The notes: generated from the sequence alone by a model not told the origin. Counted from the stretch's first letter, positions 61 through 63,300 are shown. The stretch: DNA of 64,000 bases from Amoebophrya sp. A120 (GCA_905178155.1 CAJINV010000012.1:1244492-1308491); one strand, 5' to 3'. Program-made: numbers and translations.

Positions 61-3000
61 CTAAACGCGCTTTTCGTTTTCCCGAACAAACCACCGGCGG
101 TGGTCCTGGCAGAATTGCCCGCCTGGCCGGTTTTGTTCGTCATTGCGGTCGTACTCGTTTCCGAGCCGCGCACGGAGCTGCCTCGGCCCAGCGGCACCAC
201 GGTCGGGGTGTACTGTTCCTGGAATTTCTTCTTGTCGCGGTCCGACCACTGGTCGTAGTTCACGGAAAACATTTGCACGTCGCTCTCCGACTCAGTGACC
301 GTTTCGTGAATGACTTTCCGGCTGTCCACGCCGAAGGTGTTGATCATAATCAGCGAGTTTTCGTGGTACTTCCGGTAGAGCTCAAACCAGCTCCGGACTA
401 TCCCGCCCTTCGTTCGCTTCAGCAGCAGTGCGTACTCGTGGTAGAGCAGGTCAAAATCCTCGATTTTGGTCATGGTTTTCCCGTAAATCTTGATGTTTCC
501 CTTCAGCAAGCAGTATATGACCTGCTTAAACATTACAGTCTCAAACGTTACAATAGAATGTCGAAATCTCTGATGCAAGAGTGCATGATCTAGCCAACTC
601 ACGTAAGATTGCGCATGACACGTTCCGGAGCCCCAAACCCCACTACAATCTGACGAAATTTGTATTGCAAAAGGTGGAACGCTATGCGAGTCTGTCATGA
701 CCATCATGCAACACAAATTCCAGATTCTATTGTAACGTGGTTTGAGATTGTAACGCTTGAGCAAGTTGTACAGTACTGCAGCAGCTTCTTGCAGTTCTCC
801 GGTTTCCAAAATTTTTTGTAGGCTTCCCGGTCGTTTTGCAATAGGAAATTCTTCACCAGCTTTTTCAGCGCTATCTGCCTCCCCTTCTGGCACTCGCAAG
901 AACTGGTGGTTGATGATGATGCAGCAACTCCGCTCGGCGCGGCGGTTGGTGTTGCCGCGGGATAGTCCTTACGTCTTCCGCTAGAAGAAGTAGTCGCTGT
1001 GCTAGTTCCCGTGCCGGCGCTAAAAGAACTGACACCACCACCAGCATGCAAAGAAAAACGTGTTACAGTTACACATCTGTTGTCAATTCAGCAGCACAAA
1101 TTTCTGCGCATGAGGAAGAAAACTTGCAATGCAGAAATCCTACGGGAAAACACCTATGAAACGAGGCTGCTATGCATATTCGGCATGACAGAGCTTGTCT
1201 GTCTTGCTTGGAATGCAACACAAAGTGTAACTGTGACACTTTTTTAGCGCGATAACCACTCGATTCGTAGTTCTTGTTTGGGTCGTAGTCGAACACGAAC
1301 GTTTCCTTGGGCTGCAGTATCAAAATGAAAAATCCCCCCTCTCCATACTAAAACGGAGACTTGTGTAGCGTGATTTGCTACCACAAATTATCGCGTTGTC
1401 ATGCTAGAAGGCAAAAGATGTAGACACTGTAGTGCTGGCTGGCGTGGGAACAAAGCCTTGCATCTTCAGCATGACAGGAGGCAACTGGGAGTGGTGCGAG
1501 ACAGCATGACAAATTGCCTGCAATTCAGGCCACAACAAACTGCGTCTCTTGGCCTTCTAGCAATACAAGTCGATTTGTGTACGCAAATCCAGCATCACAA
1601 ATGTCCTTTTCAATATGGGGAGGTGGGATTTTTCCTCGCAATATGCAGAATGATCGCTTCAAACAGCGTGGAGAGCAGCACGAAGTCTGGGTCTTTCCCG
1701 CTCATCAGGTCGCCGAACACGATGGTCGAGTTGACGTCCATGAAGATCATGATGCGTTCCTTGGGCCGCGAAAACCGCTCGATGATGCGCGTGAAAAACT
1801 CGTCATCGGTCATGGCATCCAAGATGCAGACCTTGCACAGCACCACATTGTACTCCTTACTGTACAGGATCGGCGAGCACGTGGTCTCGCGCGTTGAAGA
1901 TGTCGCGGAGTTTGCGGCTACTTGATCCCCCGCCGGGCGGTCGTCGTTGTTCATCGGGTTTATTTTGCTACTGGTGCTACTGTAACCGTCCTCATACACA
2001 CAGCTCGAAACCTCCTCGAACCCGTTTTTCCCGATCGAAAAATCAACAAACCGCCCGGACACGTCCCGCAAGTTCAAAATCCCGGGCAGAAACTCCGTAC
2101 TCAGCTGCGGCTCGGGTAAGAGTTGCGAGGACCTACTACAGGAAGCGTCGTAGACGCCGCCAGCATAATTTCCGATATTTCCCGACGCATTGATATTGTT
2201 CTCTCCTCCCTCGCCTGCAGAGGTCCGGGCTGAGGACGCTGCTGCTGCTCTTCGGGATTTGATCTTGGTAATACCCAAAGTAGGTGTTTTGGTCACCGAC
2301 TTCTGACTGGATGTTTTCAAGCCCTGTTCTACTCCTTGAAGGTTCTTGTCGTCTGCTGCTGTACTAGTTGCGGCCGACGTGCCTACATTAGTAGTACTGC
2401 TGCTACGATTGCCAGGATGAACATTGTTCCCGCCCGTGGCTATAACTTCCTCTTCAAAAAATTCCAGATTATCGTCGAAGAAGAACACGCAGGTGCGGCT
2501 ATCCCGTGTGAAAACATCTCCACTCCAGAGCTGTCGTGCAATTCTGCATGCCAAAAAGGTTTCTCATGCGGAGCCCTATGAGAGGCATTTGCTTTTCGTG
2601 TTTTGGGATTTGTGATGCTAGGATCAGCATGCTGTGCTAGATCTGTGATGCTTCTGAGCTAGCGAAACAGGATCTCACTACGAGGACAAACTTGTCATGC
2701 CAAACAACCAAAGCTGTGTGATTTGTCTAGCAGATTTCCCATCTTGATTCTGGTGTGGGGACGTTTTTGATCATGATACCGGCTCGCGTAGGAAAAAGCC
2801 GGAATCACCTTCGCGCCGCCGTTCTTGAAAGTTATGGATTGCAAAAATGTCTGGGTCTGGAAGTGGAAACTTGTAGTGCTAAAAGTGAATGATAGAGGCA
2901 CTGCAGTGCGCAGCTATGCATGACAAATTTTTTGGCTACTATGTCTTACGTACTCCGCATGGCAAACTGCATTTTTCCATGACAGGCAAGAGGGCTTTTT

Positions 3001-6000
3001 CGTGCCTATGCAACACAGATTGTCGAGTCATGCCAGGCAAGCATGACAAACTTGCATTCTACTTCCAGATCCTGACCCAGACATTTTTGCATTTGATAAA
3101 AGTCTGCTGCTTCCAAAAGTTGTAGCAGGAAGTAGTCACGTGCAGGCCGTAAAGGTCCTTGATTTTGTGCAAATAGGCGGCGAAGTTGTTTGCGAACTGC
3201 CGCCGCGCCGGGTGAAAGCGGCACGTGGACTATGCAATGCAAAAGCATCGTACTCGTATTGCAATCATGCATTATGCTTCTTGAGGTAAATCAGCATTAC
3301 AAATTTCATTTCTCATGATGTAATGCATTTAATATACGAGTACGATACTTTTGCAATCCATATGGACAGCTGCTTCGCGATCTTGTTGTTGCCGTTGTTT
3401 CCACCAGCCGCACCTGAAACGGATAATTTCGCACTTTCGGTAATGCTTTTCTGTTTCGTTACCACGCTACCTGGTCCTCCCGGCGCCCTCACCATTTCGC
3501 CGCCCTCAGAAGTTGTTGTTGGGCTTCTTTTCTCATTTACATTTCCGCCTCCATCCTCGTCATACCCGCCCTGTTCAAGCGCCGAGACCTGCGGCGCAAG
3601 CACCGCGGTGGGTTTGCTCGAGTACTCGCAACAGCGCGAGAAGTCCACGTCCTGAAGAAGAATGTGCATGTTCGGCACCCCCTTCTTCTCTTTCCTTCGC
3701 TCGTACACCTGCTCGGTGCGGATCTTGTCCACCCGAATGAGCAACTCGATCCCAGTACTACTGCTCGAGGAGGGATGATCCCCCGTCTTGTCAAAACTCT
3801 CGTGCCTTTGTAGTTCAACATCTACGACATCTTCAGCTGAGGTAGCGCATGCTGATAAAAACCCTGCTTCTGCAGCTCGTTCTTCGTTCGCGAGACGAAG
3901 AGCTTCATCTGATGTACTAGCATTTCCATTTTCGTCGAGTGGACCTACATCCTCCCCCACGACCGTCGAAGCGCTGCTGGCACAGCTACTGTAGTTGGTC
4001 ATTTCTTCCAAATAGAATTGAGTGGCTTCAAACAACTTCGAGTGTGTGCAGTGCATGGCCCAGTGGACAATGTCCATCAGGTGCACATACACAATGCACT
4101 CCAGCGAGTCGCGGTAGTTGTACTTCAGGGAATCAAAAATCGCGAGGAGGAGCCGCAGCGCCCGCTCGTAGCCGATCACCTCCCCTCGCTCGCCACTGGT
4201 GCACGCCTCGAAATAGTTGGGCAAGTGATAGTATCCCACGAAAAAAGTGTTACAGTTACACATCTGTAGTCAATTCAGCAACACAAATTTCTCCGCATGA
4301 GAGAGAAAACTTGTAATGCAGAAATCCTACGGGAAAACAGCTATGCAACGAGGCTCCTATGCATATCCGGCATGACACAGCTTGTCTGTCTTGCTTGGCC
4401 TGCAACACAGTCTGTAACTGTAACACTTTTTTCTTGCGATAGATAGCTGAGAAAGCCGGGACGCTCGTGGATGCCGTCCAGGTTGAGATATTCGATGAAC
4501 CGCTTCTGCTCATCGAGAAACAGTTCCGAAAACGCCTGCTGAATCTTCTTCCCCTGTTCAAAGGTGAACACCCGGGCATTGCAGCACAGCTTGATCACCG
4601 CCTTTTTATACATTGCAAATATGTCTGGGACGTCTGGGAAGATCTATATTGGAGGAGTTTTCTCATGCACAATTGTAGTACTTACATGAACCGCGTTCTT
4701 GCCTGATGTAATCCATGCTCTAGCATCTACTTCACACCTATCGTCGCAAAGGCTTCCCTATGCCTATGATCCGGGTGCTCCTTTAATTATAATTTGCTGC
4801 ACATGCAATACAGGTGTATGTAGCATAGAAAGTTAGCATCACAAATCCCATTCTATTTTCAGACCCAAGAAACATACTTGCAATGCATACCGCTCCTTCG
4901 CGGACGAGAGTTCGGCCAGGCATTGCGCGGACCGGTTGTGCAGGTAGATGTCGTAGGCCATAAGAATCGAAGAAGCCACGTCGTAGCTCGTCCCTTGGTG
5001 TTGGTGCGAATTGGCCGCTGCGGTTTTTTTGGAAACAACCAGCTGGTGCGCGTTTTTATTTTTTGAAGATGTCCCGCTGTTCATCATGTCATTGTTTTCA
5101 TCTTCGTGCTTCTGCAGGTCGTTCTCCTGCATTCCTAGCTGTCCAGCTGTTGCTTCCCTTGTAGTTCCGGCTCCACTTGTGAGAGGATCTGCAGTTGAGG
5201 TCAATATCGCCCGCATGGCAGAGGACTCGAGAAAGTATTGCAACGCATGCCGGCCCATCTGGAAATTCCGGAAAACGTTCTCCGTCATCACATGGCCCAT
5301 ATCGGCGAAACACAGGAACTATGCATTGCAAATATGTCTGGGTCTGGAAGAGTGTAACTTGTCATGCTGCATCTGGATCGTGGAAAAATTTGTCTTGCAT
5401 GATCACCAAAAGAGGTCCACTTTTGAACAAGTTTAGAGGCAGTTTCTCATGCACGAAAGGCATGATAGAGATCTCACAGAACCTGTCATGCTAGGCAGCG
5501 CATGCCAGACCGTGTGGGCCATGGAAAACCTGCATGACAAGCCTAGCAATCTTCCAGACGCAGACATTTTTGCATTTGATAGGAACAGATAAAAATGGTA
5601 CAGCTGCATGCAGTCCGGAAGCAGGTCCGGGTGAGGAAGCGATTCTTGTTCCTGTCGCTTATTTCCGCTAGCAAAACCCATTCCTCCCGCTGCAGTAGAC
5701 GTGTGTTGGTCCGGCGTCGCTCTTCGATGCGACGAAGGAGAGGACGCCGTGCGAAGATTTTCGTCGATTCGTGTCCGCCCACTGTGGCGCGGATAACCCT
5801 GCGAAACGTCGTCCATTGTTCTTCCCGCCACCGGATTTATCTTTGTACTTGCAGGTGTTGTTGTACTTCTAGCATCAAGCTGACCGACAGTATGTCCACC
5901 TGCGGTACTAGATGATCTTCCACCACGACCAGCTGCCCGGTCGTTATTTGTACTTCTACTTCCTGCCAATAAAACACTCTTGTTCCAATTCGCGCAGGTT

Positions 6001-9000
6001 TGCAGGATATAAACTGCAAATATGTCTGGGTCTGGAAAGATCCAAGGTTTGTCATGCTTGTCGGACATGCATCTCAACGATCTGTCATGCACATTACCCA
6101 AAAGTGCCACTTTTCTGTCATGCAGAAGCTCGCTTTGTCATGCAGAAAAGCCAAGACTGTAGCACCTCCAAAACTTGTCATGCTTGCCAGTCAAATGAGG
6201 TGTCCTCGTCTTCCGCAACCAGCATTACAAGTTTCCAGACGTAAACATAATTGCAATGCATACAGGAATATCCTTAAGAAATCCAGGGACGCGGGCACGC
6301 ACTCGTTCTGCAGAAACTGGTTGAAGCGAAACCGCATCTGGATCAGGGTCTCGATAACCAGCTGCCACTTTTTGGGCAGTCGGTTGAAGCTTGGCAAGAC
6401 GGCGGCGTTTGTTTTGATCACATGCGTCAACACCGTGGACGGGTCAAAGATGATTGCGTTCGCACTTTGGTCGTTGCTTTTCTTCATCTTCTTCATCTTG
6501 TGTGACTGTTGGATTTGAGACGTAGAAGATTCTGCCTTATTTTTTCCACCACCACTTGCTGACGATGTTGTCCCACCTCCCATAGCCATGCCCAAATCCT
6601 GTCGCAACAGTGGCAATTTTCCGAGCTCGTGGATGGCCAAATAGGCGAAGACCGCGTCGAGAATCTCCTTGTCGAAAATCTTCACGTTTTCCGTCGCCCA
6701 ACTCGTCAGCTCCTTCCAGGCGTAAGTGGTCAATTCCAGATTATTCTTATCCCGAGGTGGATGACCAACGGCGCTCGTAGTAGTTGATGTTGCTGTTCCA
6801 CCGCCACCGGCACCTCCACCGACGGTCATGTAATTCATTTTTCTTGTGCCGGTACTGGCCGGCACTAGATTGCAAAATTCCTCGTATTTGTCCGTCACGA
6901 TGCAAAAGACGGTGAGGAACCCGGAAACCGTGTGCTTCAAGATGTGCTTCGGCGAACGCGACATATCTGAGTACGCCTTCTTTGCCGAGGACGTCGGTGG
7001 CTTTTTACCTGACGCGATAGAATACACAGAACTGTCGCCCAAGTGGTCCTCATCTACTTCTTGCTCATAATCATTTTCATCTCCAGGTCGTGATCCGGAA
7101 GATCCACCATCAGAACTGCTGTTTTTCATCACACCATCAAGATTGTGGAACTTCTCCGCATCCACGAAAAATTCCGAATTGCGCTCGTCGGTTTCATACC
7201 CCCGGAAGTAACAGAGCTCCGGGTAATAATGCTTGATCTCCTGAAGAAATTCTTCCGGCGTCGTCCTCGGTTGACAAAAAAAATGATCCGGTCGTGCAGC
7301 TGTCGCTCGTCCTGCGCGGCCGTGTTTAGATACACTTCGTTGTGATGAACGACCCAAAGCACCAGCTGCGGCTGCGGCATGTGGTCCTCGAAAATCATTT
7401 CCACCGACACCGGAGATGTCTTTGTCTTTCCTCGCTGCTCGATGTTCATTGTGAAGATTGTCATTATTTCCCCCAGGTCGTTTCTTCTGCTCGAAGTGGT
7501 CAACAGAAGTATCTTCATCTTCACGGTCCTCGTGCGAGCTCCACCCTAAGATTTTTTTCGAAATGAATTCTCCCGCTTTTTCCGACAAATTTCTCAAGAT
7601 CCTCTCGTCCTCTATCGGCACCCAAGGGCGGGCACTGACGAGGTATTCTTGGTCATAAGCCGCGCCCGCCTTGCTCGTGTTGTGGTGTTCTTCGTGGTCC
7701 GACACGCTCCGGATGGGAAACAAGTCCAGCCCCACGTTCTCAAATTTCACGGCGGAACTATAGGATTTCGTAAACTGGGTCAAATCCCGAAACTGGATCT
7801 TTATCGGCTCATGTTTACTTCGCACAACATGTTCTTGCGGAGGACGAAACGAGGTTGAGGCTCTACTAGTACTGAGAAAGTGATTGTTCGACGAAGCCCT
7901 TGTGGTATTTTTCATCCCCGTGGTCGTTGCTGCCGATGACGATATTTTTCCGACGACGCTGCTCTGTGCAGCGTCGAAAACTTTCAGCAAGATTTTCAAC
8001 GCGTGTACCAACTCGATCCGGGGGTTCTCGATCGCCGCCTGGAAAAACAAATGCGCGTCAGAAAGAACGAACAGTGTGGATGAGGAACCACCGGCAGCTC
8101 CATAGAACGACAACCCCACACCGCGGCCCGGTTGATGAAAAGTGTTAATACTGCTAGAAGTCGTACTACCCTGAATGGTCACCAGACAACTACCTTCCCT
8201 GCTGCTGTACTTTGACAAGTACCCTTCCAGACGTTCCCACGCGCCCCGATATCAACTGCAAAGATGTCTGGGTCTGGAAGAGTGCCAGCCTTGTCATGCA
8301 GGTTTTCCATGACCCATGAGGTCTGGGATGTAGGACATAGCATGACAGATTCTGCGAGAGTTCTATCATGCCAATCCTGCATGAGAAACTGCCTCTCGAT
8401 TAGGTCAAAAGTGGACAGCTTGTGGTAATCATGCAACACAAATTTTTACATGATTTAGATATAGCATGACAAGTTGCTTTGTTCCAGACCCAGACATTTT
8501 TGCATTTGATACCCGATCCTCTTTCACCATGGTCGCGATCGCGTCCCGCAGCAGTTCCCCGTGTATCGCTATCCTGAGTAAAAACGTCCCTACACCAGAG
8601 CCAAGGTGGTAAATCTGCTAGACAAATCAACCAGCTTTGGCTGTTTCGCATGACAAGTTTGTCCTTGTAGTGTGATCCTGCTTAGGTAGTTCAGCAGCAT
8701 CACAGGTCCAGCACATCATGCTGATTATAGCACCACAAATCCCAAAACACGAACAGAAAATGCCTCTCATGGGGCCCAGCATCAGAAACTTTTTTCGCAT
8801 GCAGATTTGCATGGCAACTCTCAGGTGGGGACGTTTTTGCAAAGGATACTCGCCCCGATTTCCGTGCTGACACTGGTTGCGCTCGTCAGGCACGCGAGCC
8901 GCACCATCGCGGGGTTCACGGTTTTCGGGGTTCCGATCGATTTCAATTCGATGAGCACCGGGACCGACGTCGCTAGCCGGATCAGGTAGTTGTAGTAGAT

Positions 9001-12000
9001 TGCGTCCTCTGTCATTTCGGAATCGTAAAAGTCCAGCAGAACGAGGAGCGCCTTTTCGATCTCATCGAAACTTTTTTGTGACTTTCGCGCAGATGGAAAA
9101 GCGGATGATGTTACGTGGTCAACACGACGACCGGTTTCACTGTCATTGTCTTTCTCTTTGACTTTGTCTGCTGCTGTGCCTCCTGCATCAAAATTCGTAG
9201 TGCTTGTCACCTTGCTCTTCCTGTAGTTCTCCGTTCCATAGGTTGCTTTTTCATTCCCGCCATTTCGACTTGCAGTGCCACTCTCGCGCTCGCCAAAAAC
9301 GACTGCCTTGTCAGAAGTGTGATAAAAATTCGAGCAAAACTGGCACGCCTGTTCTAGGGTTAAAACCGCGAGAAAGAAGGCCAAGCCCGAAGAGGATTGG
9401 TCGGCTATGCTGAGCAAAAACGTCCCCACATCAGAGTCAAGATGGGCAATCTGCTAGACAAATCAACCAGCATTGGCTGTTTCCCATGACAAGTTTGCCC
9501 TCATAGTCTAATCCTGTTCAGCTAGTTCAGCAGCATCCCAGATCCATCTAGCACATCATGCTGGTTCTAGCATTACAAATTCCAAAAGACGACTAGAAAA
9601 TGCTTCTCATGGGGCTCCGCATGAGAATCTTTTTTGGCATGCAGATTTGCATGACAAGTCTGGGGTGGGGACGTTTTTACTCAGAATATCGGTGTAAGCA
9701 AGGTCTCCCTCCGGTTCACCCGAAATAATCCCTGCGTAGCTGTCGACAGCAGGTGGACCACGAGCCAGCTCATCTGCATCGAGTTTCATGATGTTCCGCA
9801 TGTTATACAAATCCACCAAGCTATCCCCTACGGTTTCCCCGCGAATGAACTGCTCAAAAGAGAAGTCCGAGTCCAGCGTTTCGTACACGAATCTCTTCAA
9901 CGGGCCATCCAATCTGGCAAAACTGGGGAACAGGTTCGGAATCTGCGTTTCCAGTGTAAGTTTCTTTCTCTGGTGTACAACACCTTCGTTGGTCGTTGAA
10001 AAAGTCGTGTGCCCGTCGTCGTCTGTTTTATTTTTGCCATTCGGGATACTGCTGTCACAGTCACCGTGGCCATGCTCCTCAACGAGCCCGAGTTCAAGAA
10101 TTTCCAGCACGAACGCGTTTTTCTGCCAGGGGGGTCGAGAGGAAGTCACAGGACTTTTCATCACTGAATCACCTTTAGAAGAAGAAGTAGTTCTACACCC
10201 GCCAGTTGTCGTGCCTTCTACCTTCTTGTCCACCTCCGTACTAGAGCTACAGCACTTCCGCAGTAGCCTCTTCACGTCCTTCCTGAATCTCGCCACATTG
10301 TGCAGCCGCGAGAGAATCAAGCACACAAAAACCGCGTCCAGAACTTCCGGCCCGGCCTCTGCGATCGGTTCGATAAAGCACTTCTGCAGGTTCTTGAAGG
10401 AACGCTTCGAAATCATTGAAGGAGCTCTCGAAAAAGCGGAGGTTGTGCCGCTACTACTCTCGTTGGCTGCACCACTTGCTGCTTCATGAGGAGCGGGGTT
10501 AACATCTCTAGGCGGCGTGCCGGTCGTAGTCGTTGACGGTTTGATATAATTTCCCGTGGACGTCGCAAACACGAAACCGTTGTAATCGTCAGATAATAGG
10601 TAGTAAAAAGCGGCACAAAGCCGCCGCACCTCGTCTCTTGCGGCACTTGCAACATTGATGTAGTAGTTCTTTGACTTTTCTGGAAGTAGATGTTGTGTGT
10701 TTTCATTGTCACGCGGCTCCAAATTATGTTGAGCGACGTCCGACTGAGTCCAATAGTACCCGAGTTCCGGATAGACATTTTGCAACCTCGTGAACAAGAG
10801 AAATGTTTCGGCCTCGTACGATGTCTTCTGTCCGCCATTCGCCAGAAGCTGCAGACCGGCGGAGTACAGTACCCCTGTCCGCATATTAAACCGCCTACGT
10901 TTGATCATATTTCCGGTGCTTCCCAGCCTAGGAATTCGTGACGGATTATCTTCCGGGCGGGAGGAAGCTGACTCCATGAGTTCGTCGGCAGAGGAAGTAA
11001 AATCTTCGTATTTATTTCCACTCCCAGAACAATCATCTGAGCCCGCAGACGTTGACTCATTTTTCATCTCGTATGCTGTTTCCTCATCCTCGACATCTTC
11101 ACCTTCATCCCCATGATCTTCTTCTTCCGACAAACCATCATCAGCGGTTTCCTGCCGACTCAGGGACCCCCGCGCCCCAGCTTCCAGCATCTTCGCAACC
11201 AGAGTGTCGGCAAACTGCAACGCAGAAGTTTGAATTTCGCTGATCTCGACCGGATCCAGGAAAAACCGCCAGGGAGAGAGCTTTGCGACAAATTGTCGAG
11301 TTTGATGTTCGTCGGCTACGGTCGCCCCTATTCTTGCGGGTTCATCGTCGTTCACGCGGGTCGTCGTCGTCGTGTGATTTTCGACATAGAAAAATGTGCT
11401 ATGCTCGTAAAGGAAGGAGGCGACCTGATGCGAAAAGTTGTCTTGCGCAAGTCCAGCAGTATCGTTTTCGTTGTTCTGAACTGCCGGTACGATTGTGTCA
11501 GTTTCAAAGGCGTGAACGTGATCGTCTGTTTCCTGAGAAATAAACTCGTTTGAAGACGAGGACCTCTGAACTGGGTCGACGACGTTTTCTTCTCCATTGG
11601 TCCAGATGACATTACGCAAGTCGTTCCTGTGCAGTGCGCCGATACCGATTAGGAAAGCCAGGTCAACACAAATGTAGTTGGACTCTTGAAGTTCGTGTTG
11701 ATGCGCCACCACATCAACTCCGTCGATGTTGATGTCGTTTCCTCGCTCCTGCTGCAAGGGCGGCTGCTCTACTCCCCCTACGGTCCGAGAAGTTAAACGC
11801 CACAGCCTTTCCGCCTCGTCGCACACTCGCAAGAGCAGCTTCAAAGCACGTTCGAGGCCGATGAAAGTAGAGTTTCGGGCAGATTTCAAAAAAACCGACA
11901 GTTCTTGGATCAAGAGTTGCGGAGGTCCGGAGAAATTCTGTTGCTTTCTGTGTGTTGTTGAAGATGCAGTAGCTCCACTTGCCATGCTTGGAGGAGATGT

Positions 12001-43830: not shown

Positions 43831-43849
43831 TTACACCCCCGTCAACCAT

Positions 43850-52800: not shown

Positions 52801-55126
52801 ACCTATTAACGTTGCTCCTTCCCATTTCCAGCCGTCAAGGTATAGGCATTGTCGTCGGTCAAGCATGTTGTCGAGGGGCTTGCTGAAAACGGAGCATAGG
52901 CCCACCGGCCTCATCAGTGACTCTAGGAAACACCCGCCTGATACTTTCGGAACCGCCGCCATCGAGATTAGCCGCCCCATCTTCGGGTATGTGCCTTCCT
53001 TCACGTCCGCTGCCATGCATTGGAACATCGCCCACTTCATCATTGGGCCTGCATGCCTAGTCATCTCATGCGTTGTCATACAAAAACCCGGGGTCCGGCC
53101 CGGCTCTAACTTTCTTACCGCTGCTTCGAATTCTTGATACGAGAGCAACCACGTGGCACCCCCTTCGGCTTCTGCGTTAACTTGCGCCTTGTTGTAGTCC
53201 TTCTCCGCGGCTCGCCACGCCGCCGCCACGTCGTCCTTCGCCGCGACTCGCTCGCCAAACTCCTCGCATACTTTGTATGGTTTTTCTCTGAAGAAGTTTT
53301 TTATTATTCTGCATATCTCCGCCGGCACTCGCGTGCATTCGTCCTCGAGCGGGGCAGGGTTTACCTTTTTCGCCTTGAGGACCTTATTTGCCTCCTGGAG
53401 GTCCTTCGCTTCGCACCCTGTCGCCCGCTTCAGGTACTTTATTCGCGTACTCTCATCCGCCTTCACCATCACTTTCGGGAAGCCCGTGCTCCATTTATTC
53501 CGTCCCTTCCGTTCACTAATTCCGGCCCAATCGATATCCTTCGGGCGGGCCGTTTCGTCGTCTTCTGCCGCCGCCGCCATCTCCTGCAAGTGATTCTTTT
53601 CGTCCAGCTCCTTCTTCTCCATCTTCTGCTCAGCCTCGTCTTTTTTGGAAACTTTTTCTTTTCTTTCTCTTTTGTATTTCAGTGTCTTCATGCCTACATT
53701 CTTAAAAATATTTCTTATTTTCATCAAAGTCTCGCCCGCTTTCGCAGTGCTGATTGTCATGCCCTGCACCCAGTCCTCCCGCGACGCGATCCCCTCCGTC
53801 CAGTAATCGACATATGTGCTCTCGCTTCCCTGTAAATTTAGTTTTTTGAAAAGCTTCTCCGCCTCCTTGTCCACCTCTCTCGTAAACCGGTCCCACTCCT
53901 TAGTCGTCGCTTCTTTTACCCGAAATACTACTCTATTTTTGTCTTTGAATGCTGGCGGCGGTTCTAGCTCGAAGTCGTAGAGCTCTAGAAAGTTGTCCGT
54001 CACACTGAACGTAGTCTGCAGCAGATTGTGGTCGCTTGATTTCATGCATACTGACTTTGTTCGCTCATGCCTAAAATATCTCGCTTCGTATACTATTACA
54101 CCGGGTGACGTCTGTGAAACTGGGCGCGTCACTAGTTTCCTGGTGTTTGCCTGGGCCCAGTTGCCGTCGTGGTCTTCTGCGGGCCCTAGGAGTCCGCTGA
54201 GTATCGCACCGGCAGGGTTGTCTTTGTTGAGCTTCTTCTCCCACTTCACCGACCGCGCGTTCAGATCGCCGAGGAGAATCATGGGGGCTTCCTGTTCAGG
54301 GTGTACCGGAAGGGAGGCTGGTCCCATCCTCCCCGGCGGGCTGTAGATACCTGCAATGCAAACTTAATCAATGACGGTCTGTCTTACATACCTGACACAG
54401 CGCGCTATGGACTTGCCCATGAAAGATTTTTCTCGGAGATGTATGCATTTATTGTTTGTTATTCTGCAACTGTGCTTATTTTTTTAACATTACAGATATG
54501 ACCTGCCAGCTTTTTTCTGTGGCATATTGCTTCCTGTTGAACAATTTGGGAGAGGTTCCACCGCTCCGGACGAGCAGTTTACTCAATTCGGACACCAGAG
54601 GCTGGAATTCAAATTTAAAAAAATTCCATTGTCCAAAATATGGGGCCATCCAGAATAATTCCACTGGAAGCCATCCAGAATAATAATTCTGGACCTCCGA
54701 GAAGGAGCCCAAAAATGCCGTTACGCACTTCTCAACTGCGGCTTCACCACCTTCTCGAGCGCCCGCGCCACCGACCTCGGCAAACTGACCAGCCTCGTCC
54801 TCGGCAAACCGACGAGCGTTCTCGCAATCCTCCGCAACTTTGTTCCTGTCTACACCCGAGGCTTCGAAGATGGGATTTGTTGTTTGTGTGTAGTCTGGTG
54901 CTGTATTCCTCTTCATGATCCAGTTGGATATCATCTTCCACGCGGGCTTTGCTAGTAGATCTCTCTTCTCATCGCAATGACCACCGGAAGGGAAACCGCT
55001 GTCGAAGCCGGCCTCCTCTGCTGATGATGCATCTGTATCATCGGCGTTAGATGATGATATATCCGTATCATCGGCGCCAGAGCTGTCGTATCCCACAGAG
55101 CCGTCGCAGGTACACAAGCTCCCCAT
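43850..55126 (-). CDS. Multi-exon gene, single-pass membrane protein with Cys-rich juxtamembrane segment; function unknown
   Basis: Exons join in frame across 7 element introns and one canonical GT-AG intron (43920..44070). Transmembrane segment GWLLAVLACLGVVMLLLIFYFY is followed by CLYNCW..CCC. The start MGSLCTC is uncertain. Confidence 0.7.
43920..44070 (-). other. Canonical GT-AG intron
   Basis: GTATTT...TTTTCCTTTGCAG with a pyrimidine tract; no TIR. Confidence 0.75.
44165..44405. mobile_element. Introner, singleton family P
   Basis: TIR TATG(C/G)AAG(T/C)GAAGCAC; TSD unrecognisable, but removing element + 5 nt is in frame. Confidence 0.7.
44489..44695. mobile_element. Introner family A (diverged)
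   Basis: TIR; TSD ATCCT. Confidence 0.85.
44998..45125. mobile_element. Introner family C (internally deleted)
   Basis: Both C-type TIRs; TSD decayed; join in frame. Confidence 0.8.
45215..45347. mobile_element. Introner, G/D-related
   Basis: TATCCAAGAGAAAAAAAC...GTTTTTTCTCTGCGATA. Confidence 0.7.
46370..47010. mobile_element. GC-rich TIR element acting as an intron
   Basis: TIR GAATCACTTCCC; subterminal CACTTCCCCA repeats; ends approximate. Confidence 0.7.
47219..47501. mobile_element. Introner family A (diverged)
   Basis: TIR; TSD CGTTC/CGTTG. Confidence 0.8.
48351..49022. repeat. Diverged direct repeat, two ~300-bp copies, period 370 bp
   Basis: CATAGTT..GACCTGAAGGGTC..CGCGCGCAAAACTTCGGCGGGC..CACCAGGAG..CGCACGAA starting at 48351 and 48721. 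Confidence 0.85.
50173..54363 (-). mobile_element. 5'-truncated non-LTR retrotransposon (APE-RT-RNase H-zinc finger; I/Ingi-like), two in-frame TAG stops
   Basis: APE: GIYSPP, LLGDLNA, SSDHN. RT: RPVGL, SGFDIVCH, GKPQGSPLSG, YSDD. RNase H: FTDGG, YIDS, WVPSH..NDFADALA. C-terminal CPVC..ADHLLFQC. Confidence 0.92.
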
Positions 55127-56255
55127 CTTCTACTAGAAGCCTTCTTCAACTATATTCACGAGTATCAGCATCAACCGACAACACACGAACCAGCTCATGC
55201 TCTGACTTTAAGTCATCCTTCGGGTCTAATTCTTCTCTCACATTTTCATTTTGTGCAGGCTTATTAATATTACTACCATATATTCACTTAGCATGTGGAA
55301 TACACAAGTAAAGCACTTTCAGAGAGGTGGTCCTACATATTACGATGACGCACCTTACTCTTCTGTTCTGCGACACGTGTCAAGGCGATCGATTTCTTCC
55401 ACTCAAGCTCGCCAAAATGCACTTCTGCTCACTCCTCCTACTGCACCGCGTTTGCGCTTTCATTCTTTCGTCGTTTACGAAATGCCCATAGTGACCAAAA
55501 GGACGCTCGTACCAGATAAGGCACGTGGACGAATCCGACCTCCAGCGATGAGATTGCGATAGGTAAGACACTATTTGTACAACACAAGGTTCCTTTCTCG
55601 TCTTGAAAGAACAGAAGAAAGCACCTGCACCCTTGCGTGCCGTATGAAGGTGGAGGCAGTTATTTTCATACTCTACCTCGTGGCTCTGGTTACCTTTTAT
55701 GTGGTTTACTTGTTCTCAAGGTACTCATGGTAACTCAGATGAGTTGATCAATTTTCTATAATCGTGCAACAAAAGCAGAGATGAAGCTACAACTTGACAA
55801 CATACTTACATCCTCTGCATGCGAGCTCAAGAAGAACAAACGCGCCTCGTTATGGACGGATTCAAGAACAAAATAAGAAGTAGAGCGGAAAATGTTGGCG
55901 ACAACAGAATCGATACGATAGAAGTAGAAAGTGGGAATTGAAATTCATAAATCAGAGTCACAAGAACCTCGAAGTAGTGTAAAAACTGCAGAGCAGCGCG
56001 TTGTTCTTATACCAGAAATTTGTGTGTAGAAAGACAAAAAAAAGCATGTGAATCCATTACAGGAACGATCAGAATACATACGAAAAACAAGTCAACGAAA
56101 TTCCACGACCAGGACTGGTACAAAACTAGTGCAGGGATTGCATTCAAGGCCTGACACCAGTTATTTGCTGCGAACCAGCGAAGTAATACAGTTCATGCCC
56201 TCAAGATCGCCTCGCAGGGCCCTCCTTTTTTGACTTCACAGCGGTTCCTTCCCCC

Positions 56256-59200
56256 TCACTTCTGCACCCGGCTGATGGCCTTCTGCGCGGCCTGGCGGAA
56301 GACTTATGCATTGTAAATATGTCCTCTGGGTCTCGAAGATTGCAAGGCTTGATATGCATCTCGTGGAGCACAAAATTGGCCTGCAAAGCACCCCGAGCAA
56401 AGGCGTCATGGATCCCGCAAGGGCAAGAGCTTCTTAAAGCCAAGACCGCATGAGAAATCCGCCCTTTGCGTGCCAAGAAGTGGGGAACACTTGCCGTCCA
56501 TGCAGCTGCAGCACAGATTTTTGCATGATTCAGATTTAGCATGTTGACAAGTTGCTGTGTTCCAGGAGGCCCAGACATATTTCTTGCAGTGGATAAAACT
56601 TCGCGAGCCGCAATCTTCCGCTTGGCAATGGCCACGCCCTGCAGAAACACCGCCTTCAGCTTATCCGCTGTAAAAACGCCTCATACTACCCGTTTTTGTA
56701 GACTCCATTCTTAGTTCCAGTCGCATACTCGTCATGCTAAACAAAATGCAGAAACCCGATTAGCCACGCAGGCCCTTTTCCAGTGAGCGGAGTTGCGTTT
56801 TTTGATTCTGTTTGCGAAAATTTTATCTTTCTCCGAAGCAAAATGACGAACTTTCTGCCCTCGTGGTGACGCGGTCATATTTTTCTAGTCGCACCCCGCT
56901 TACCATGCATATGAAGCAAAATACGCCTCCTTTTGACTCGTGTAAGTAGCACAACACAGCTCCTTTTAGTTTTGGCCAGGCGGCGTGAAAGACGTTTTCA
57001 CACAGGATACAGCTTGCCCTTCTGCTGCGCGACGCTGGCGGCCTGCTTCGCGGCGATGAGCCCACGGGCGTGCTGCATCATGTCCGATTGTCTCACACAG
57101 AAAAAAGATACTAGCGCATCACATGTGTATCACATGCAAGGATCATGACAACCCGGAAACAGCTCAACTGGGGGTACTAACCCACAGCTGCAAGTGCAAG
57201 TGTATGTATTCCACATGCTTCTAGACAGAGGAGGGTGCTCTTCGACGTGTGCTTGCTTTTATGTTTGCCATTGCAAGCCGAAAAAAGATAAGAAGTATGT
57301 TATCCTTTAACTCTAGACCGCTCGGAATGTAATCGTGATTCAAACGGAATTCAAACTGAATTCAAAAAGTTGGCATTTTCAAAAAAACGCCCCTCCAAGG
57401 GGGCGAATCGGGCGAAAAAAATGCGGCGCACGACAGCCATAGAAAACGGCCTCTAGCCGCTTTCACGCGAACGCTGCGCCCTGTGCTTGGTCCAGCGGAC
57501 CAGGCGCGAGGGGCGAGGCGATCCCCGGCCGCGATTCCCAATGCGGTCAGCCACCCAAGATCGCCCAGGCTGGTCTCGGTAGGTGAAGTCGACTGGAGGC
57601 ACAACTCTGGTGTCCCGGACCACAAAATCCCATCCCCCACCAATTCAAAATCCATCCGAATTCTGTCAGAATCCGTCCGTATCAAGAAGCCAAGTAGGGG
57701 ACAAAATTCGGACGGAATTCCGAGCTAGTACGGCGCGGAGCAGCCCGCGGGCGTGCTGCATCATGTCCGGTTGTCTCACACAGAAAAACGATAGCTAGCG
57801 TGTCACACCACTTGTATGAAGGTCGCGCCCGGAGGGCGATATTGGTAACCAAATGCGTGCGCGAAAATCTAAGCAGCGCGAAAGCCAAACCAGCCGCGCG
57901 GCGAAAGCGCGGCCCGGCGGGCCGCGCTTTCGCCACCACCATTTCTTTTAATTAGAATCCCACTTCTTCTTCTTGAGCCGCGGGCCGCAGTTTGCGGTCG
58001 CGGCCCAAGGGCCGCGGACAACTACTGTCGCCCGCGGCGGCCCGCAGGCTCCTGCGATAAGCATTGAAGGCGAAATCCGGTCTGCTATTTCGCAGCGGGG
58101 CATCCTTTCTAGCCCCCTGCATGACAAACTGGCCACCTGGCCCGGAAGGTATGAGGAAAACCGAAAATCCGGAAACCCTTCCGAGCAACCAAAATCGGGC
58201 AATTCAGACGCGGCGGAGGTGCCGAATTTGTGCCCACAACCCAGACCAAATGCGGACTTTGGGACATGCCTCCGCCCGCTTCTAGTCCGACTTTTTTTCC
58301 CCAATCGCGATGGTATGGCGCAAGCGCGCGCCCGCCGGACCGCCCTTGGTGGCCAGTTTCTAAGCCTGCCGAGGGTTCTCGACTTTCGCCTATTTTTGCT
58401 TTTTTTTCAAGTTTTTGGGCGTGCTGCATCATGTCCGATTGTCTCACACAGAAAAACGATAGCTAGCGCGACGTCGCACTACTTGTATCACATGCAAAGA
58501 TCATAACAGGCCAGGACTATCGGTCTTTTCGCGTAGCCCACAGCTGGAACTGCATAAAGTCCACATGCTAGACAGACGAGGCTGCTCTTGTTCTTCGACG
58601 TGTACTTACATCTGCAATTCCAAGCCGAAAAAAGATAAGAAGTATGTTAATCTGCTACTATCCTTTCTCTGCGTGATAGGTTTCTCGGCCTGCTTCTTCA
58701 TCACCTGCAGCTTTTTCATGGACATCATCTTCATGGACATTTTCATCGAAGCCATCTTCATCGAAGCCATTTTCATCGAGGACATCTTCTTATGCATTGC
58801 AAATATGTCTGGGTCTGGGAGATTGTCATGCATATTTTGCAAGACTCATGACGCCAGTAATGCATGCCCTAGCATCACAGATTTTTTGAGGGCTTCCTGA
58901 TCCTGATGCCTATTCCGCATGACAAATGCCCTCCCCGCGAAGCACAAACTGGACTCCTGCTATTGCTGTTCATGCAATACAGATTCTTTTTAGAATCCAA
59001 AGACAGCATCACAAGTTGCAACCTTCCAGACCCAGAGGACATATTTACATTTGATACTTCTTCATGCTCATCATTTTCATGGACGCCATCTTCTTCATGT
59101 ATGAGAGTGCACCACTCGTCCCCCTCCCCTCATTTGTAAGTATAACATCAACACCAACACAAGCAACGGCAGAGATGTGGCTTCCGCATGACAAACCTGT

Positions 59201-59410
59201 ACCCGCATTGTAGTACTGTTTGCAGTTGTTCCGAAATTTGCCATGCAAGGAGTGCGAAAAGGCAGGGTGTGGATTTGGTATTTCGCATCACAAACGAGGG
59301 GAAAAGGGAGCAGTTGTGCCCTCTCATATCATGGACGCCATCTTCATGCTGGCCATCATCTTATTCATGCTGGCCATCTTCATGGCCGACATCTTCTTCA
59401 TCGGGGCCAT
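56256..59410 (-). CDS. Small basic protein (~140 aa) with Met/Lys-repeat N-terminus, putative chromatin protein
   Basis: AAAAAAATG start; MAPMKKMSAMKMASM...MKKLQVMKKQAEK...QQKGKLKAVFLQGVAIAKRKIAAREVFRQAAQKAISRVQK*. Four introner junctions are in frame; the junction across ~57075-58660 is unresolved. Confidence 0.7.
56305..56595. mobile_element. Introner family A (diverged)
   Basis: TIR; TSD AGACT/AAACT. Confidence 0.85.
56662..57009. mobile_element. Introner, B-related
   Basis: TATCC..GTAAAAACG / CGTTTTCACACAGGATA; TSD CAGCT. Confidence 0.8.
57066..58650. repeat. Duplicated intron/acceptor block: copies 57066-57303 and 58417-58650, partial copy 57750-57818
   Basis: GGGCGTGCTGCATCATGTCCG(A/G)TTGTCTCACACAGAAAAA occurs three times; CAAGCCGAAAAAAGATAAGAAGTATGTTA occurs twice. 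Confidence 0.85.
58791..59056. mobile_element. Introner family A
   Basis: TIR; TSD CTTCT. Confidence 0.9.
59100..59328. mobile_element. Introner family L
   Basis: TIR TATGAGAG(T/G)GCAC; TSD TCATG. Confidence 0.88.
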
Positions 59411-60387
59411 TTTTTGTTGGACGCGAGAAGAGATCGCAAGAGTTTTGTCTACTTGTACTTTCTTAGTTGATGCGAAAGTAGATCTAGATCTTCGAAAGGA
59501 TGCTAACTAGTTCGTGTAGTACTACTGAAGCGTACTTCTTGTTCTTCAAACAGTTTTGGAGCAAGTTTCAGGTAGGTAAAGTTGTTAAAGCTAGCTTGTT
59601 CTTAACAGCACGAGGCGAGCTGTGAAGCGGAGCGAGAGAGTCGTCTTTTTCACTGTTCTGGGCGGGATGGAGAGAGAACCGGAATCCATTCTCGGAATAA
59701 CTGCAAGATCGCAGCGCGAAACGCATACATAACACGGAGTCAGGATTTGAGAATGACGAGGCACAGTAACTTCGGAAGAGAGGCAAAATAGCTCTTACCG
59801 ACGTTGTTGAGAAGTGATCTGACTCTGCGCATTGTCAGAACCGAAGTTTGGATCATCGCACCCGTACGCCAACCGAAATTGTATAAACGCTCACACATCA
59901 ACCGACATTTGAATCTTCGCAAGCACCAGCTGCACGATCTGTTCATAGAACAGCGCAAGAACCGCAACTGTCCTCTTGCAAAAATGTGGACCGACAAGAT
60001 AGCGAAGTAGAAGTAGAATGCACTTGTGGAACTCGATGGAGACTTCTTCAAAAGAACCGACTTTGGTTTTTCACGCACCGAGGAACCCTATCTGTCTTCG
60101 TTAGAACAAAAAGGAGCAGGTGTCTAGCGAAGGTAGGAGACCAGACTCAACAAGCGAATTTTGTTCAACATCGCAATATGTCTCTGCGATACCTTTTCAC
60201 TTGTGCGTGCATCAAATCGAAGTTTTGGGTTTCATTAAATCAAAGCCACGATCATTCGCTGTCTCATTTGCGCCACGTGAAGTTGTGTTCTCAAAGGTGG
60301 TGTTGTCCGTCGGTACAACAAGTAAAGAGAGGTGGAGCAATGCTAGGATAACGATAAACGAAAATGCTCCACGCCAAAATTACATTA

Positions 60388-63300
60388 TTATCTCCGCCGC
60401 CCCTTCTGCCCCTTCCCACTGCTCTTCCTAAAGTCCAAAACCGCTTGGGTGAGCGCCTTGTGGCTCTCTTGTAGGGAAGTCACGAGAATATCGAAGGCGA
60501 ATATGTCTGGGTCTGGAAGGTTTGTGTTGCTGAATCTTGCATGACACAGAGGTCGCTGTTTCAAATCTTGCATCACAAATCCGGTGGACGCAGACATGTT
60601 TGCGATGCATAGGAGAGCTCCAACATCATTTTTTGCAGTTCGCCCTGCTCCTCGGCTTCATCACGCTCCTCCCCGATGAATATCGACGACGAACACTGTG
60701 CTATGATTGGTGTAACTTTGTATTGCAGACCGGGGAATAAAAGAACGATATACACACGTCATGCCAGAAATCCACGATAGCCTGTCGACGTCCAGACGAG
60801 TGTTCTTGCCCCGTACCAGCGACGCATGACAGATTTTTTCTCTCCTGTAAAGCAATTTTGTCATGCGGTTACTAGGCGAATAAAACAAAAAATCACACCA
60901 ACAAAGCTATTGTTATTTTCCGGGATAATACAGAAATCCGTCGTATTAGCGTCGCTGAACCGAGCTCCACCTGTCTCGTACTCCCGAGTGCGCTTAATCA
61001 AGGTTTTTTCGAGATTTTTGTTTTCCCAAAACAGCTCGGACAACAGTTTCGCCCTCGTCGCGTGCTCCTCTCTGCTTCTAACATGCTCAAGAGCTGAAGC
61101 GGAAGAAGAAGCTACTGTAGACGACGGAACTGCATGCGGGCTGCCACTTCTCTCATCTCCTTGTCCTGCGTCAATAAACTCGTCATTGTTCTTCCTGAAG
61201 TTGTTTCCGGCCTCGGTCTCCGATGGCAAGACTCCCTGCAGCTGGTGCTTCAGGGCCTTTATCTTCACCTCGAGTTTTTTCACCGTGTTCCGCTTTAAAA
61301 ATTCCTTTCGCCTCTTCGCTTTTTGCACTTCCCCTCGCAAAAACTCGGTTTTCTTCTGCAATTCTTTTTCCCGCTCCTTCCTGGCCTGAATCGCGCGGTA
61401 GCGAGGCAGCAATTGCTCCCGTTTTTCCAAGAGCGAGAACCTCAAATGCTCGACGTCTTCTTCTAGTTGGCACACGTGCTCGTCGAAATCGAGATCGGAA
61501 TTGATCTCAGGGTCGAATGAGTGATCACTCGAGTTGCCGTCAGATTTTTCACCCTCATCACCCATATTAGCTCGTTGTAACTTTTCATCATCTCCTGCTT
61601 CATCTCCTAGTGCAGAAGTTGCGGCGCCCGCTTGCTTTGTTGAAAACAGCGTCGTTGTATGCGCCAAAAACATCTTCCGTTTCAGCGCTTTTAACTTTTC
61701 TTTCAGCATGCCGGTCCTCCGCTCCGCTTCCTGGCTCGGGTGGATCCAGTTCTGCTCCCTCTTCGCTTCGAACTGCTCTTCTAGTAGATTTTCTTCCTGA
61801 TTTATCGCAGGAAAAAATTGTTTCACTGTATTCATTGCGGCATCTGCAACAGGAGCAGGACAAGTGCGTTTTAGTACTGATAAAAAAAAACAGACCCTCT
61901 GTTGCATTGTCAGCAAAACAGATAGTTCTAGCTGCCAAATTTTGTATCACAAGCCTACACGTATGAACGATTTTTCCATGCGATAGGTTTCAAGCTGATC
62001 ACTTTTCTCTGCAACTCTTTCTCTAGCGCTTCGAGTCTGCTCTTCCGCTCCTTGATTTCCGCGACGCAGCGATTGGATTCCGCTTCGATTTTGGGCAACG
62101 TCTGCTTCAGTTCTGCAACTTCTGATCTCCGTCATGCAATACAAACACCTGACGGCGGCCCCCTCTGCCGAGATAGTTTTCAGGGGGTCAGGATGTTGCC
62201 CGATCAAATTTCTTGTCAACATCTTCTTGCGAAAAATGAGTAATCATGCAGTGTCTACTTCACTATACATGATGCGGTTGTGTTTTATTTAGTACCATGT
62301 CAAAGATAACATCCGCGCATATGTTCAGCAGGTGGAAGAGCCGCGCAAGTGCATGACATAAGATTTTGTCGACCTCGAGTTCCTCTTCCTCCCATTCCTT
62401 CTGCTTTTCCGCAAAACAAGTCTTCGATTCCTCCAGCTGATCCGCAAACTCATTCAGCTCGTTCTCCGTTTTATCCCACAGAAAAAAGCTCCGAGTAAGA
62501 AGGCCCCATCAAATTTGATGTATGCGCAAAAACGACAAGCATCTGTTTCCATACATGGATGCCTGTACCCACAGCAACAGCATACTATACCCCTGTTTAG
62601 AGCAAGCACAACGTAATACGCGAGACAGATGAGATTGTCTTGTAGTGTGTAAAGCAGTGGATAATTTGCTTACAGAACTAGTGGCTCTTGTCGTTCTACG
62701 AGCTTCTTTCTTCCCTCGGATACTTTTCCTGGTACACTGCCAGCGTGTGCAGAAATTCTTTTTCCTCATTTATGCAAAGGAAAAATCCCCCCTCCCCATA
62801 TCAAAATGGAAATTTCTGATGCTGATGCGCATACACAAATCCGATTTGTCTTGCAGTAAGGCACTCCGGCCAGATCCGCAGCCTAGGTGGGAGCGCTCGT
62901 CAGGTCTAGTTGTTCAGCATTGCAAATGGCTACCGTCTAGGACCAACAGCATGCCAAATCGCGTCACAATTGGGCGGATGCCTCTGCACTTGTCTTTTTG
63001 CAAGACAAACCTGATTTGTGCTCGCAAATCAGCAACACAATAAATTTTTGGAAACATATCTTTTAATATGGGGAGGGGGGATTTTTCCTCTCAATATCAT
63101 TTAAAAGCTGGACCCGCTCCCGCGCTAGGTACGCGGAGTTCGCGCAGACACACAACTTCAGCTTCTGCTGAATTCGCGACTTCAAGCGCTTCGGCTGCGG
63201 TGGCTGCTCGTCCGGCTGCTGGTAGTAATGGTTCCCAGGTGCTGCCACGGAAGAGGTCGGCTTGCTTTTGCAACTGGTTGGCGAATGGTAGACATTGTAG

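Follow-up and report, generated by a model that had tools for sequence, protein, structure and literature searches.

The window analysed here is a 64-kb stretch of the genome of Amoebophrya sp. A120, a marine parasite of algae (CAJINV010000012.1:1244492-1308491; 50.9% G+C) in which dense minus-strand coding sequence is interrupted by 120-350-bp inverted-repeat inserts. Between positions 516 and 63536, 57 elements with terminal inverted repeats (TIRs) were catalogued. Their ends read TAT...ATA, they are flanked by a 5-bp target-site duplication (TSD), share an end signature and a subterminal motif across families and lie in either orientation. Removing each element together with 5 nt restores the host reading frames, and joints in RNA-like contigs skip that same length in one register. 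Two of the host genes are:

60..40350, minus strand: host gene with a 9,136-codon frame; start codon not fixed; its 40 detected introns are all TAT elements
56250..59412, minus strand: host gene of 135 aa, Met/Lys-rich; one RNA-like contig spans all five joints

Excision of the elements between 60 and 40560 with 5 nt each, at 40/40 sites, yields a single minus-strand open reading frame (ORF) of 9,136 codons; excision with 4, 6 or 0 extra nucleotides at the same 40 sites leaves 10 pieces each time. Ankyrin repeats are the only domain recognized in this gene (two exons were scanned and the repeats seen in one). The same operation restores the 135-aa gene (five elements), whose product may be DVNP-like, and a 540-aa frame (six elements). 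A reading frame fixes the extra excised length only modulo 3; since the RNA joints described below show 5 nt in 10/10 cases, the extra length is 5 nt.

The elements are listed by position, with no strand assigned. Mismatches are those between the two TSD copies, and the register is the number of bases before TAT in the transcript sense.

516..770: cluster 11, ends TAT/GTA, TSD exact
1045..1254: cluster 2, ends CAT/ATA, TSD 1 mismatch
1318..1643: cluster 4, TSD exact
2500..2778: cluster 3, TSD 1 mismatch
2833..3098: cluster 0, TSD exact
3231..3362: cluster 1, TSD exact
4232..4441: cluster 2, TSD exact
4607..4889: singleton with cluster-0-like TIR, TSD 3 mismatches
5320..5581: cluster 0, TSD exact; orientation opposite to the 8250 element in the same gene
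6008..6262: cluster 0, TSD exact
8250..8511: cluster 0, TSD exact
8570..8848: cluster 3, TSD 1 mismatch
9406..9688: cluster 3, TSD 1 mismatch
14046..14262: cluster 5, TSD exact
14716..15024: cluster 9, TSD 1 mismatch
15088..15366: cluster 3, ends TTT/ATA, TSD exact
21953..22234: cluster 3, ends TAT/ACA, TSD 1 mismatch
22517..22725: cluster 2, TSD exact; the sole one of the 57 reading GT...AG in the 1+4 register
23306..23516: cluster 2; left end at either 23306 or 23309 (3-nt ambiguity)
24959..25218: cluster 0, TSD exact
25779..25932: cluster 1, TSD exact
26496..26816: cluster 4, TSD exact
27789..28044: cluster 0, TSD exact
28108..28375: cluster 0, TSD 1 mismatch; the match of 58 contigs from other genome copies ends exactly before 28108
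28437..28680: cluster 0, TSD 1 mismatch
28924..29098: cluster 12, ends TAT/ATG, TSD exact; the one case with C at intron +2
29148..29357: cluster 2, TSD exact
30077..30338: cluster 0, TSD exact
30376..30521: cluster 1, ends AAT/ATA, TSD 1 mismatch
30648..30978: cluster 4, TSD exact
32200..32463: cluster 0, TSD exact
32840..33082: singleton with cluster-5-like TIR, TSD exact
33174..33492: cluster 4, TSD exact
33598..33913: cluster 4, TSD exact
33979..35312: cluster 7, swollen by a nested insertion (family norm ~236 bp), TSD 1 mismatch
35585..37256: cluster 3, holding a nested non-TAT TIR element, TSD 1 mismatch
37655..37920: cluster 0, ends TAT/GTA, TSD exact
38704..38969: cluster 0, ends TTT/ATA, TSD exact
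39049..39330: cluster 3, TSD 1 mismatch
39698..39983: cluster 3, TSD exact
43569..43830: cluster 0, TSD exact
44489..44696: cluster 0, TSD exact
44998..45125: cluster 4, shortened, TSD decayed (4 mismatches)
45215..45347: singleton, TSD decayed (5 mismatches)
46370..47010: further probable member, outside the 57; right end uncertain (47010 or 47019)
47222..47501: further decayed member, outside the 57, ends TCT/ATA
47509..54526: cluster-12-like ends around a non-LTR (long terminal repeat) retrotransposon, TSD 1 mismatch
56305..56595: element; RNA joint 56298>56595, element+5, registers -1/0/1
56662..57009: element, TSD exact; RNA joint 56656>57010, element+5
57091..58678: element of 1,588 bp that contains insertions and further copies of its end; RNA joint 57085>58679, registers 0/1
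58791..59056: cluster 0, TSD exact; RNA joint 58785>59057
59100..59328: cluster 5, TSD exact; RNA joint 59094>59329
60489..60611: cluster 0, shortened, TSD 3 mismatches; RNA joint 60483>60612, registers 0/1
60681..60927: singleton, TSD 2 mismatches; RNA joint 60675>60928, registers 0/1/2
61803..61985: singleton, TSD 2 mismatches; RNA joint 61798>61987, registers 1/2
62133..62360: singleton, ends CAT/ATA, TSD 4 mismatches; RNA joint 62128>62362, register 1 only; no predicted end pairing
62472..62722: cluster-12-like, TSD 1 mismatch; retained in the single contig reaching it
62771..63096: cluster 4, TSD exact; no joint listed
63339..63536: singleton, ends TAT/GTA, TSD 3 mismatches; RNA joint 63333>63537, registers 0/1

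TAT...ATA is perfect at both ends of 45/57 elements, and one base is changed at one end in the other 12/57. The two TSD copies are identical in 33 elements and differ at one position in 15, at two in 3, at three in 3, at four in 2 and at five in 1; 48/57 thus have 0-1 mismatch, where random 5-mers match exactly in 0.13% of cases and with at most one mismatch in 1.7%. An earlier reading made from the sequence only had proposed exactly these ends, this duplication length and the restoration of frame by removal of element plus 5 nt for about 15 introner families, and all three features are found; the family number is compatible with the 22 blastn clusters seen here (10 multi-copy and 12 singletons, several singletons having TIRs like those of big families). 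The curated catalogue was partly chosen on TSD and TAT and is not itself a test of the rule; it is also incomplete, with at least two further decayed members at 47222-47501 and 46370-47010.

The rule was assessed with a terminus-blind scan that took all inverted-repeat end pairs and counted exact flanking direct repeats, its denominators including cross-pairings of neighbouring copies. In the window, an exact 5-bp repeat flanks 21/56 pairs that start with TAT (4 bp, 0; 6 bp, 0) and 3/1,440 pairs that start with other triplets. The count was repeated in 160 loci (737 kb) of a second public assembly, pulled by pattern search of metagenome_contigs with a TAT-bearing pattern of one family; TSD length was no selection criterion. 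There, exact 5-bp TSDs flank 311/533 TAT pairs versus 24/9,362 others, with three 4-bp repeats and no 6-bp repeats among the TAT pairs. A caller that did not require any terminal triplet found 419 elements in these loci, 403 of them with TAT at the left end and 406 with TAT at the right. T, A and T occupy the terminal positions at 936, 942 and 935 of 952 ends, and A stands at positions 11-13 in 832, 872 and 889 of 952, giving an end signature of TAT, 7 nt and AAA that is common to the families; TGT is a rare end variant (4/838 ends). The second assembly carries the same element families as the window, up to 95% alike; no orthologue of the window was found among the best 40 blastn hits in its loci, nor was the TIR pattern found in viral_contigs.

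The element boundary is fixed independently, because contigs from other genome copies cease matching exactly at the first base of the element (39-58 contigs at three ends; flanks agree 0.36-0.39). The TSD sequence varies from site to site, and the insertion sites show no clear target consensus and no phase rule (17/14/9). Insertions in the window that break the rule lie inside TAT elements.

Exon joints were taken from Logan contigs of run X8 (54600-64000), a run whose RNA nature is a guess. Three of 13 joint rows (56537>59005, 56543/58824 and 58825>58906) lie inside element copies and were dropped. All 10 joints counted skip element+5, and none of the 10 permits a GT-AG reading, whichever allowed slide is taken, in line with the earlier expectation for RNA junctions; in the 1+4 register, GT...AG is read in 1/57 catalogued elements. 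We regard removal of element+5 as nearly certain.

The exact positions of the cuts follow from imperfect TSDs. Three joints have perfect TSDs and are uninformative on cut position. The remaining seven allow registers {-1,0,1}, {0,1}, {0,1}, {0,1,2}, {1,2}, {1} and {0,1}, which intersect only at 1, so the intron comprises 1 nt, TAT...ATA and 4 nt, and both cut sites lie inside the TSD copies. All mismatched TSD positions at the joints (17/17) are consistent with this, the upstream copy supplying the 15 at positions 1-4 and the downstream copy the 2 at position 5. Joint 62128>62362 fits once the decayed left end is set at 62133 (CAT, with AAA at 11-13), a placement made after the joint was seen; the offset at the TAT end of this element is independent of it. 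We hold the 1+4 register with high confidence. The sequence-only reading had splicing exactly reverse the insertion, which stands for sequence and length (10/10 joints) and fails for the cut positions, which lie inside both TSD copies and do not delimit the element plus one TSD.

Joints of this kind would also be seen if the joined X8 contigs were DNA of a relative with empty sites, in which case they would say nothing of splicing; the guessed status of X8 and the location of some of its contigs inside introns would agree with such an origin. Five elements of different families and ages are gone from one contig, which shows 0 differing letters over its listed pieces, X8 holds 0.05 of the words of a coding stretch, and one contig retains one element and lacks the next two. 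Together with the 17/17 mismatches, which take positions 1-4 and position 5 from different TSD copies, this makes empty-site DNA a very improbable source. Run X3 had the character of low-coverage DNA, and the joints it gave were artefacts of repeats; no RNA run is listed as carrying 9700-19600. In raw RNA runs X5 and X7, tens to hundreds of reads at single other loci run from flank into element, so some element copies are retained in abundant RNA.

The window elements are very likely members of the introners published for A120, judging from their end motif and from the G+C content of the window. The earlier reading had mentioned the invasive inverted-repeat introners reported in Amoebophrya, and a TAT start is indeed already in print for this strain: Farhat 2021 (PMC7789003) describes an inverted-repeat motif of TAT, seven looser bases and at least three A, in RNA-supported non-canonical introns of about 250 nt. 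As in that account, the elements here are repeated, start their inverted repeat with TAT, have a direct repeat at the exon/intron boundary and undergo non-GT-AG splicing, the last resting on a run whose RNA status is a guess. In the same paper, direct repeats vary from 3 to 5 nt (the legend of Fig. S19 shows one of 5 bp), there is "no clear splicing signature", splice sites are variable relative to the hairpin and mobilization by a general transposase is ruled out, whereas the elements here have a uniform 5-bp TSD, a fixed register and a subterminal motif common to families. Strain A25 has TT starts and a TTA motif. Published counts for A120 also point towards the 1+4 register: the nine commonest splice-site pairs all start with NT (Farhat Table S4, PMC7789003), and family 2 introns start with NT in 6,681/9,716 cases (69%) and with TA in 392 (4%) (Gozashti 2025, PMC12130899).

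The elements have the features of non-autonomous TIR elements, or miniature inverted-repeat transposable elements (MITEs): TIRs, a locus-specific TSD of fixed length, no coding capacity and insertion in both orientations, members of the same family being found in both within one gene. Reverse splicing produces no locus-specific 5-bp duplication and inserts in one orientation only. The site-specific 5-bp TSDs and the two orientations in one gene therefore argue for DNA transposition. Spread of the introns at the RNA level, through reverse splicing and reverse transcription and without any transposase, would accord with the failure to find a transposase, here and by Farhat, and with a reverse transcriptase remnant in the genome; it is already largely refuted by TSDs that differ between sites and by the mixed orientations, and we give it hardly any credence.

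With DNA transposition as the preferred route, the question is how many mobilizing systems acted. A 9-nt motif, GCAWBASAR, which was chosen by visual inspection of the window, reaches 13-26 per kb in every one of the 15 multi-copy clusters, including five without window members, versus 0.33 per kb in exons. It is subterminal and polarized (241:15 near the left end, 9:264 near the right end), and clusters with unrelated interiors have TAT, AAA at 11-13 and the polarized motif in common at both ends. Such an arrangement may be the anatomy of putative binding sites for a shared transposase.

Uniform ends could also result from splicing acting as a filter: several unrelated transposon kinds would be active and only those with TAT ends and a 5-bp TSD would survive in exons, so that uniformity would not point to one mobilizer. 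Such filtering may occur, because other kinds of insertion (a GAG...CTC element with a 3-bp repeat, a poly(T)-ended insertion and a non-LTR retrotransposon) are present only inside TAT elements and hence introns, and the published A120 transposon classes are mixed. A filter would account for the absence of other kinds, not for the TAT, the AAA at 11-13 and the polarized subterminal motif that unrelated-interior clusters share, and there is no clear end-to-end asymmetry beyond position 1, as recognition at the DNA level predicts. We therefore consider filtering an unlikely source of the uniformity and favour, with reasonable confidence, one mobilizing system for all families; that it is of integrase type we regard as only somewhat more probable than the contrary. 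The single transposase superfamily put forward in the earlier reading thus fares unevenly: the shared ends and the motif in 15 multi-copy clusters favour one mobilizing system, whereas the single superfamily is unproven, no transposase having been found in the window or the 737 kb and splicing being a possible filter.

The autonomous partner that the earlier reading called for did not come to light, no element with these ends and a transposase ORF being found in the 64-kb window and the 737 kb of loci. Long TAT elements considered as candidates were short family members with nested insertions. The element at 47509-54526 was rejected for the same role, its nested content being remnants of a non-LTR retrotransposon. 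Ten TAT pairs longer than 450 bp occur in the loci, and the five inspected have no long coding frame (not all ORFs were Pfam-scanned). A 1.1-kb TAT element in one of the loci (L021:505-1608) has a perfect TSD, a TIR unlike those of the window families and an interior rich in short repeats; its longest ORF has no Pfam match.

TAT termini with a 5-bp TSD had been said to match no familiar superfamily, a statement that does not hold, as A120 family 38 is noted as "5-bp TSD, TA/TA Termini, Ginger", with 5 copies and Copia/Gypsy-like ORFs (Gozashti 2025, PMC12130899). The main text of that paper says that family 38 lacks known Ginger termini and TSDs, and we set it beside the window elements by description, not by sequence. 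In the same source, 56/58 A120 families are of superfamily "Unknown"; the TSD lengths assigned automatically run from 2 to 11 or are lacking, and six rows have a length of 5. IS3EU/GingerRoot elements (PMC10045372, PMC6839031) have TA..TA termini, TIRs, no target sequence preference and an integrase-related DDE transposase. The window elements resemble them in the first three respects and differ in TSD length, which is usually 6 bp in IS3EU/GingerRoot and 5 bp here (6-bp cases 0/56 and 0/533). Ginger1 and Ginger2 have TG..CA termini and TSDs of 4 and 6 bp, respectively (PMC6839031), neither of which is seen in the window elements. By their sequence, the elements thus appear to behave as integrase-type MITEs, yet fail each named superfamily on TSD length or termini.

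How the introns are recognized was approached through base changes at their ends. Spliceosomal donors are GU or GC, which is the basis for expecting a conserved U at intron +2, and under 1+4 the first T of TAT is that base. The prediction that it decays less than its mirror base was set down before counting. Among second-assembly elements with a called strand (the caller's only check was on its own training data, the window, 36/36), +2 U is changed in 0/221 versus 8/221 at the mirror base (p=0.008); with the window added, the counts are 1/278 versus 11 (p=0.006), the single change being U to C. Intron position +1 and the last two bases are free, a preference for AG at the end is not strong (22/221) and the first exon base is unbiased. 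Of the features of U2-type introns, the conserved +2 U is therefore present and GT...AG ends are absent.

The same elements and the same 1+4 rule would also be compatible with removal by a non-spliceosomal pair of enzymes, an endonuclease and a ligase, guided by structure and acting at a set distance from the TIR stem, as is suspected for the nonconventional introns of euglenids. In folded pre-mRNA pieces the ends pair over at least 8 bp in 51/53, neither G at +1 nor AG at the end marks the introns, and the Euglena code is likewise a palindromic motif with fixed spacers; U1 snRNA is not reported for A120 (PMC7789003). Against guidance by structure, element 62133-62360 is cut exactly despite almost no predicted end pairing (0.1 bp), the terminal triplets pair at p>0.5 in only 25-27 of 53 pieces, end positions 4-7 are only 37-71% complementary, and strand-specific conservation of +2 U is expected of a spliceosomal donor. 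In favour of a spliceosome, U2, U4, U5 and U6 snRNAs are reported for A120 (PMC7789003). The nuclease is accordingly a lesser possibility, and a relaxed U2-type spliceosome seems the more plausible remover, about twice as much so on our analysis.

Two other groups of transposon-related introns invite comparison. Euglenid nonconventional introns (N3CDG...CHGN5-6, no GT-AG, probable MITE origin; PMC12501133, PMC11282704) also combine a palindromic end motif, fixed spacers from both splice sites and the lack of GT-AG. Here, in contrast, the code is N1-TAT...ATA-N4, the two spacers together equal the TSD length, conservation of +2 U is seen on the transcript strand and the exon start has no purine bias. 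In Fritillaria borealis, non-autonomous TIR transposons have given rise to non-GT-AG introns handled by a modified U2-type spliceosome (bioRxiv 10.1101/2025.08.15.670264, PMC11282704). The TIR origin and the absence of GT-AG are shared, whereas the F. borealis sites coincide with the TIR ends and favour AG-AC/AG-AT, and here both sites lie in the TSD with +1, -2 and -1 free.

Taken together, the window inserts are non-autonomous TAT...ATA TIR elements with a 5-bp TSD. A single kind of integrase-related DDE transposase probably mobilized all of them, and a relaxed U2-type spliceosome probably takes them out of the RNA at a fixed offset, 1 nt before TAT and 4 nt after ATA. In the first step, the transposase would bind the common motif, cut at the TAT ends and insert with a 5-nt stagger; the nearest described kinds would be GingerRoot/IS3EU (TA..TA) and A120 family 38. 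In the second, the splicing machinery would read nUAU as the 5' site, with only the +2 U mattering, and set the 3' site by a count of bases from the far end, without recourse to AG. The 1 and 4 nt add up to the TSD length and the two ends mirror each other, so that every insertion, wherever and whichever way round it lands, would yield the original mRNA again, which would explain the invasion of the genome by introns.

Several points tell against this proposal. The choice of register 1 over register 0 rests on two joints, both from one contig, and each joint is represented by one contig (depth 5-7.5) of a run whose RNA status is guessed. Three raw RNA runs (X5-X7) have no exon coverage in 21900-35500 or 54600-64000, showing only TIR pieces from other loci, an absence that says nothing about expression. 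Of the published family-2 introns, 6,598/9,716 (68%; PMC12130899) have AN ends, against 70/221 second-assembly elements (32%) expected to do so under 1+4; the excess may reflect a mix of 1+4 and mirror 4+1 calls, with aligners sliding within perfect TSDs, or possibly a real second register. The +2 asymmetry would fail correction if all 20 scanned positions were counted, a branch-point-like A at -7 is changed in 3 cases versus 7 at the mirror base, which is not significant (p=0.34), and G is not enriched at +1 (p=0.37). No transposase was found among 16 window ORFs, and no transposase or integrase Pfam family in 143/173 ORFs of at least 230 aa from the 737-kb loci, the other 30/173 being shadow frames or duplicates and the scan covering neither shorter ORFs nor intron-split genes. 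Farhat 2021 likewise found none in A120 (PMC7789003), and in Gozashti 2025 one A120 family is classed as Mutator-like and four families are classed as non-LTR (PMC12130899).

The observation itself is solid: the rule is a real feature of the published system and simpler than the published one. In print, Amoebophrya introns are highly varied, falling into 1,954 families with variable repeats; they are described as having neither a splice signature nor a general transposase, and as being spliced by an unexplained mechanism without U1. The code N-TAT...ATA-NNNN, with 1+4 equal to the TSD length, would replace this variety with one rule. Neither a uniform 5-bp TSD nor the 1+4 register was found in the literature searched (open papers; Farhat Figs 3 and S19-S25 may show part), nor were the +2 U asymmetry and the shared subterminal motif. 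The rule permits introns to be called from DNA alone, as with the joined 9,136-codon gene, and points to where a branch point might be sought, to the base to mutate, and to the ends and motif with which the transposase could be sought. More tentatively, one undescribed integrase-type lineage (TAT, 5-bp TSD) might have made nearly all of the ~30,000 non-canonical introns, the host having evolved a position-counting spliceosome that needs only the +2 U. Its cuts, 1 nt and 4 nt beyond the ends of the element, would suit the 5-bp stagger, so that each insertion would become a perfect intron in either orientation. Such a fit of splice-site geometry to the stagger of a transposase would be a clear case bearing on the origin of new intron classes and of altered spliceosomes.

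Some TAT elements contain insertions of other kinds:

35825-37204, no strand assigned: nested TIR element of another kind, 1.38 kb, ends GAG...CTC, 89-bp terminal repeat, 3-bp flanking repeat TAG
~34176-35267, no strand assigned: nested ~1.1-kb insertion in the cluster-7 element, with poly(T) end and ~11-bp direct repeat, non-LTR retroposon-like
about 50176-54363, no strand assigned: decayed non-LTR retrotransposon within 47509-54526, with endonuclease, reverse transcriptase (RT) and RNase H remnants and one stop inside the RT region

The element at 35825-37204 has no Pfam match, and the host frame remains open over the full length of the 1.67-kb intron that holds it. The longest ORF of the 33979..35312 element has no Pfam match either; its nested insertion includes a tRNA-B-box-like stretch by eye, and ARAGORN found no tRNA there. 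The 47509-54526 element is a predicted 7-kb intron, and part of the retrotransposon leader recurs in three of the second-assembly loci (L008-L010). Near 57774 and 58442, the 57091-58678 intron carries two duplicates of its 3' terminus together with 25 nt of the exon that follows, which resemble decoy 3' sites; the one contig nonetheless uses the distal site. A 2-nt micro-exon is predicted at 47503-47504, between adjacent TAT introns, from the frame: keeping it gives a 617-aa frame (45322-55129). Finally, a probable canonical intron (GTAT...polypyrimidine...CAG) lies at 43920-44070 in a gene that also has TAT introns, and its donor fits N-TAT.

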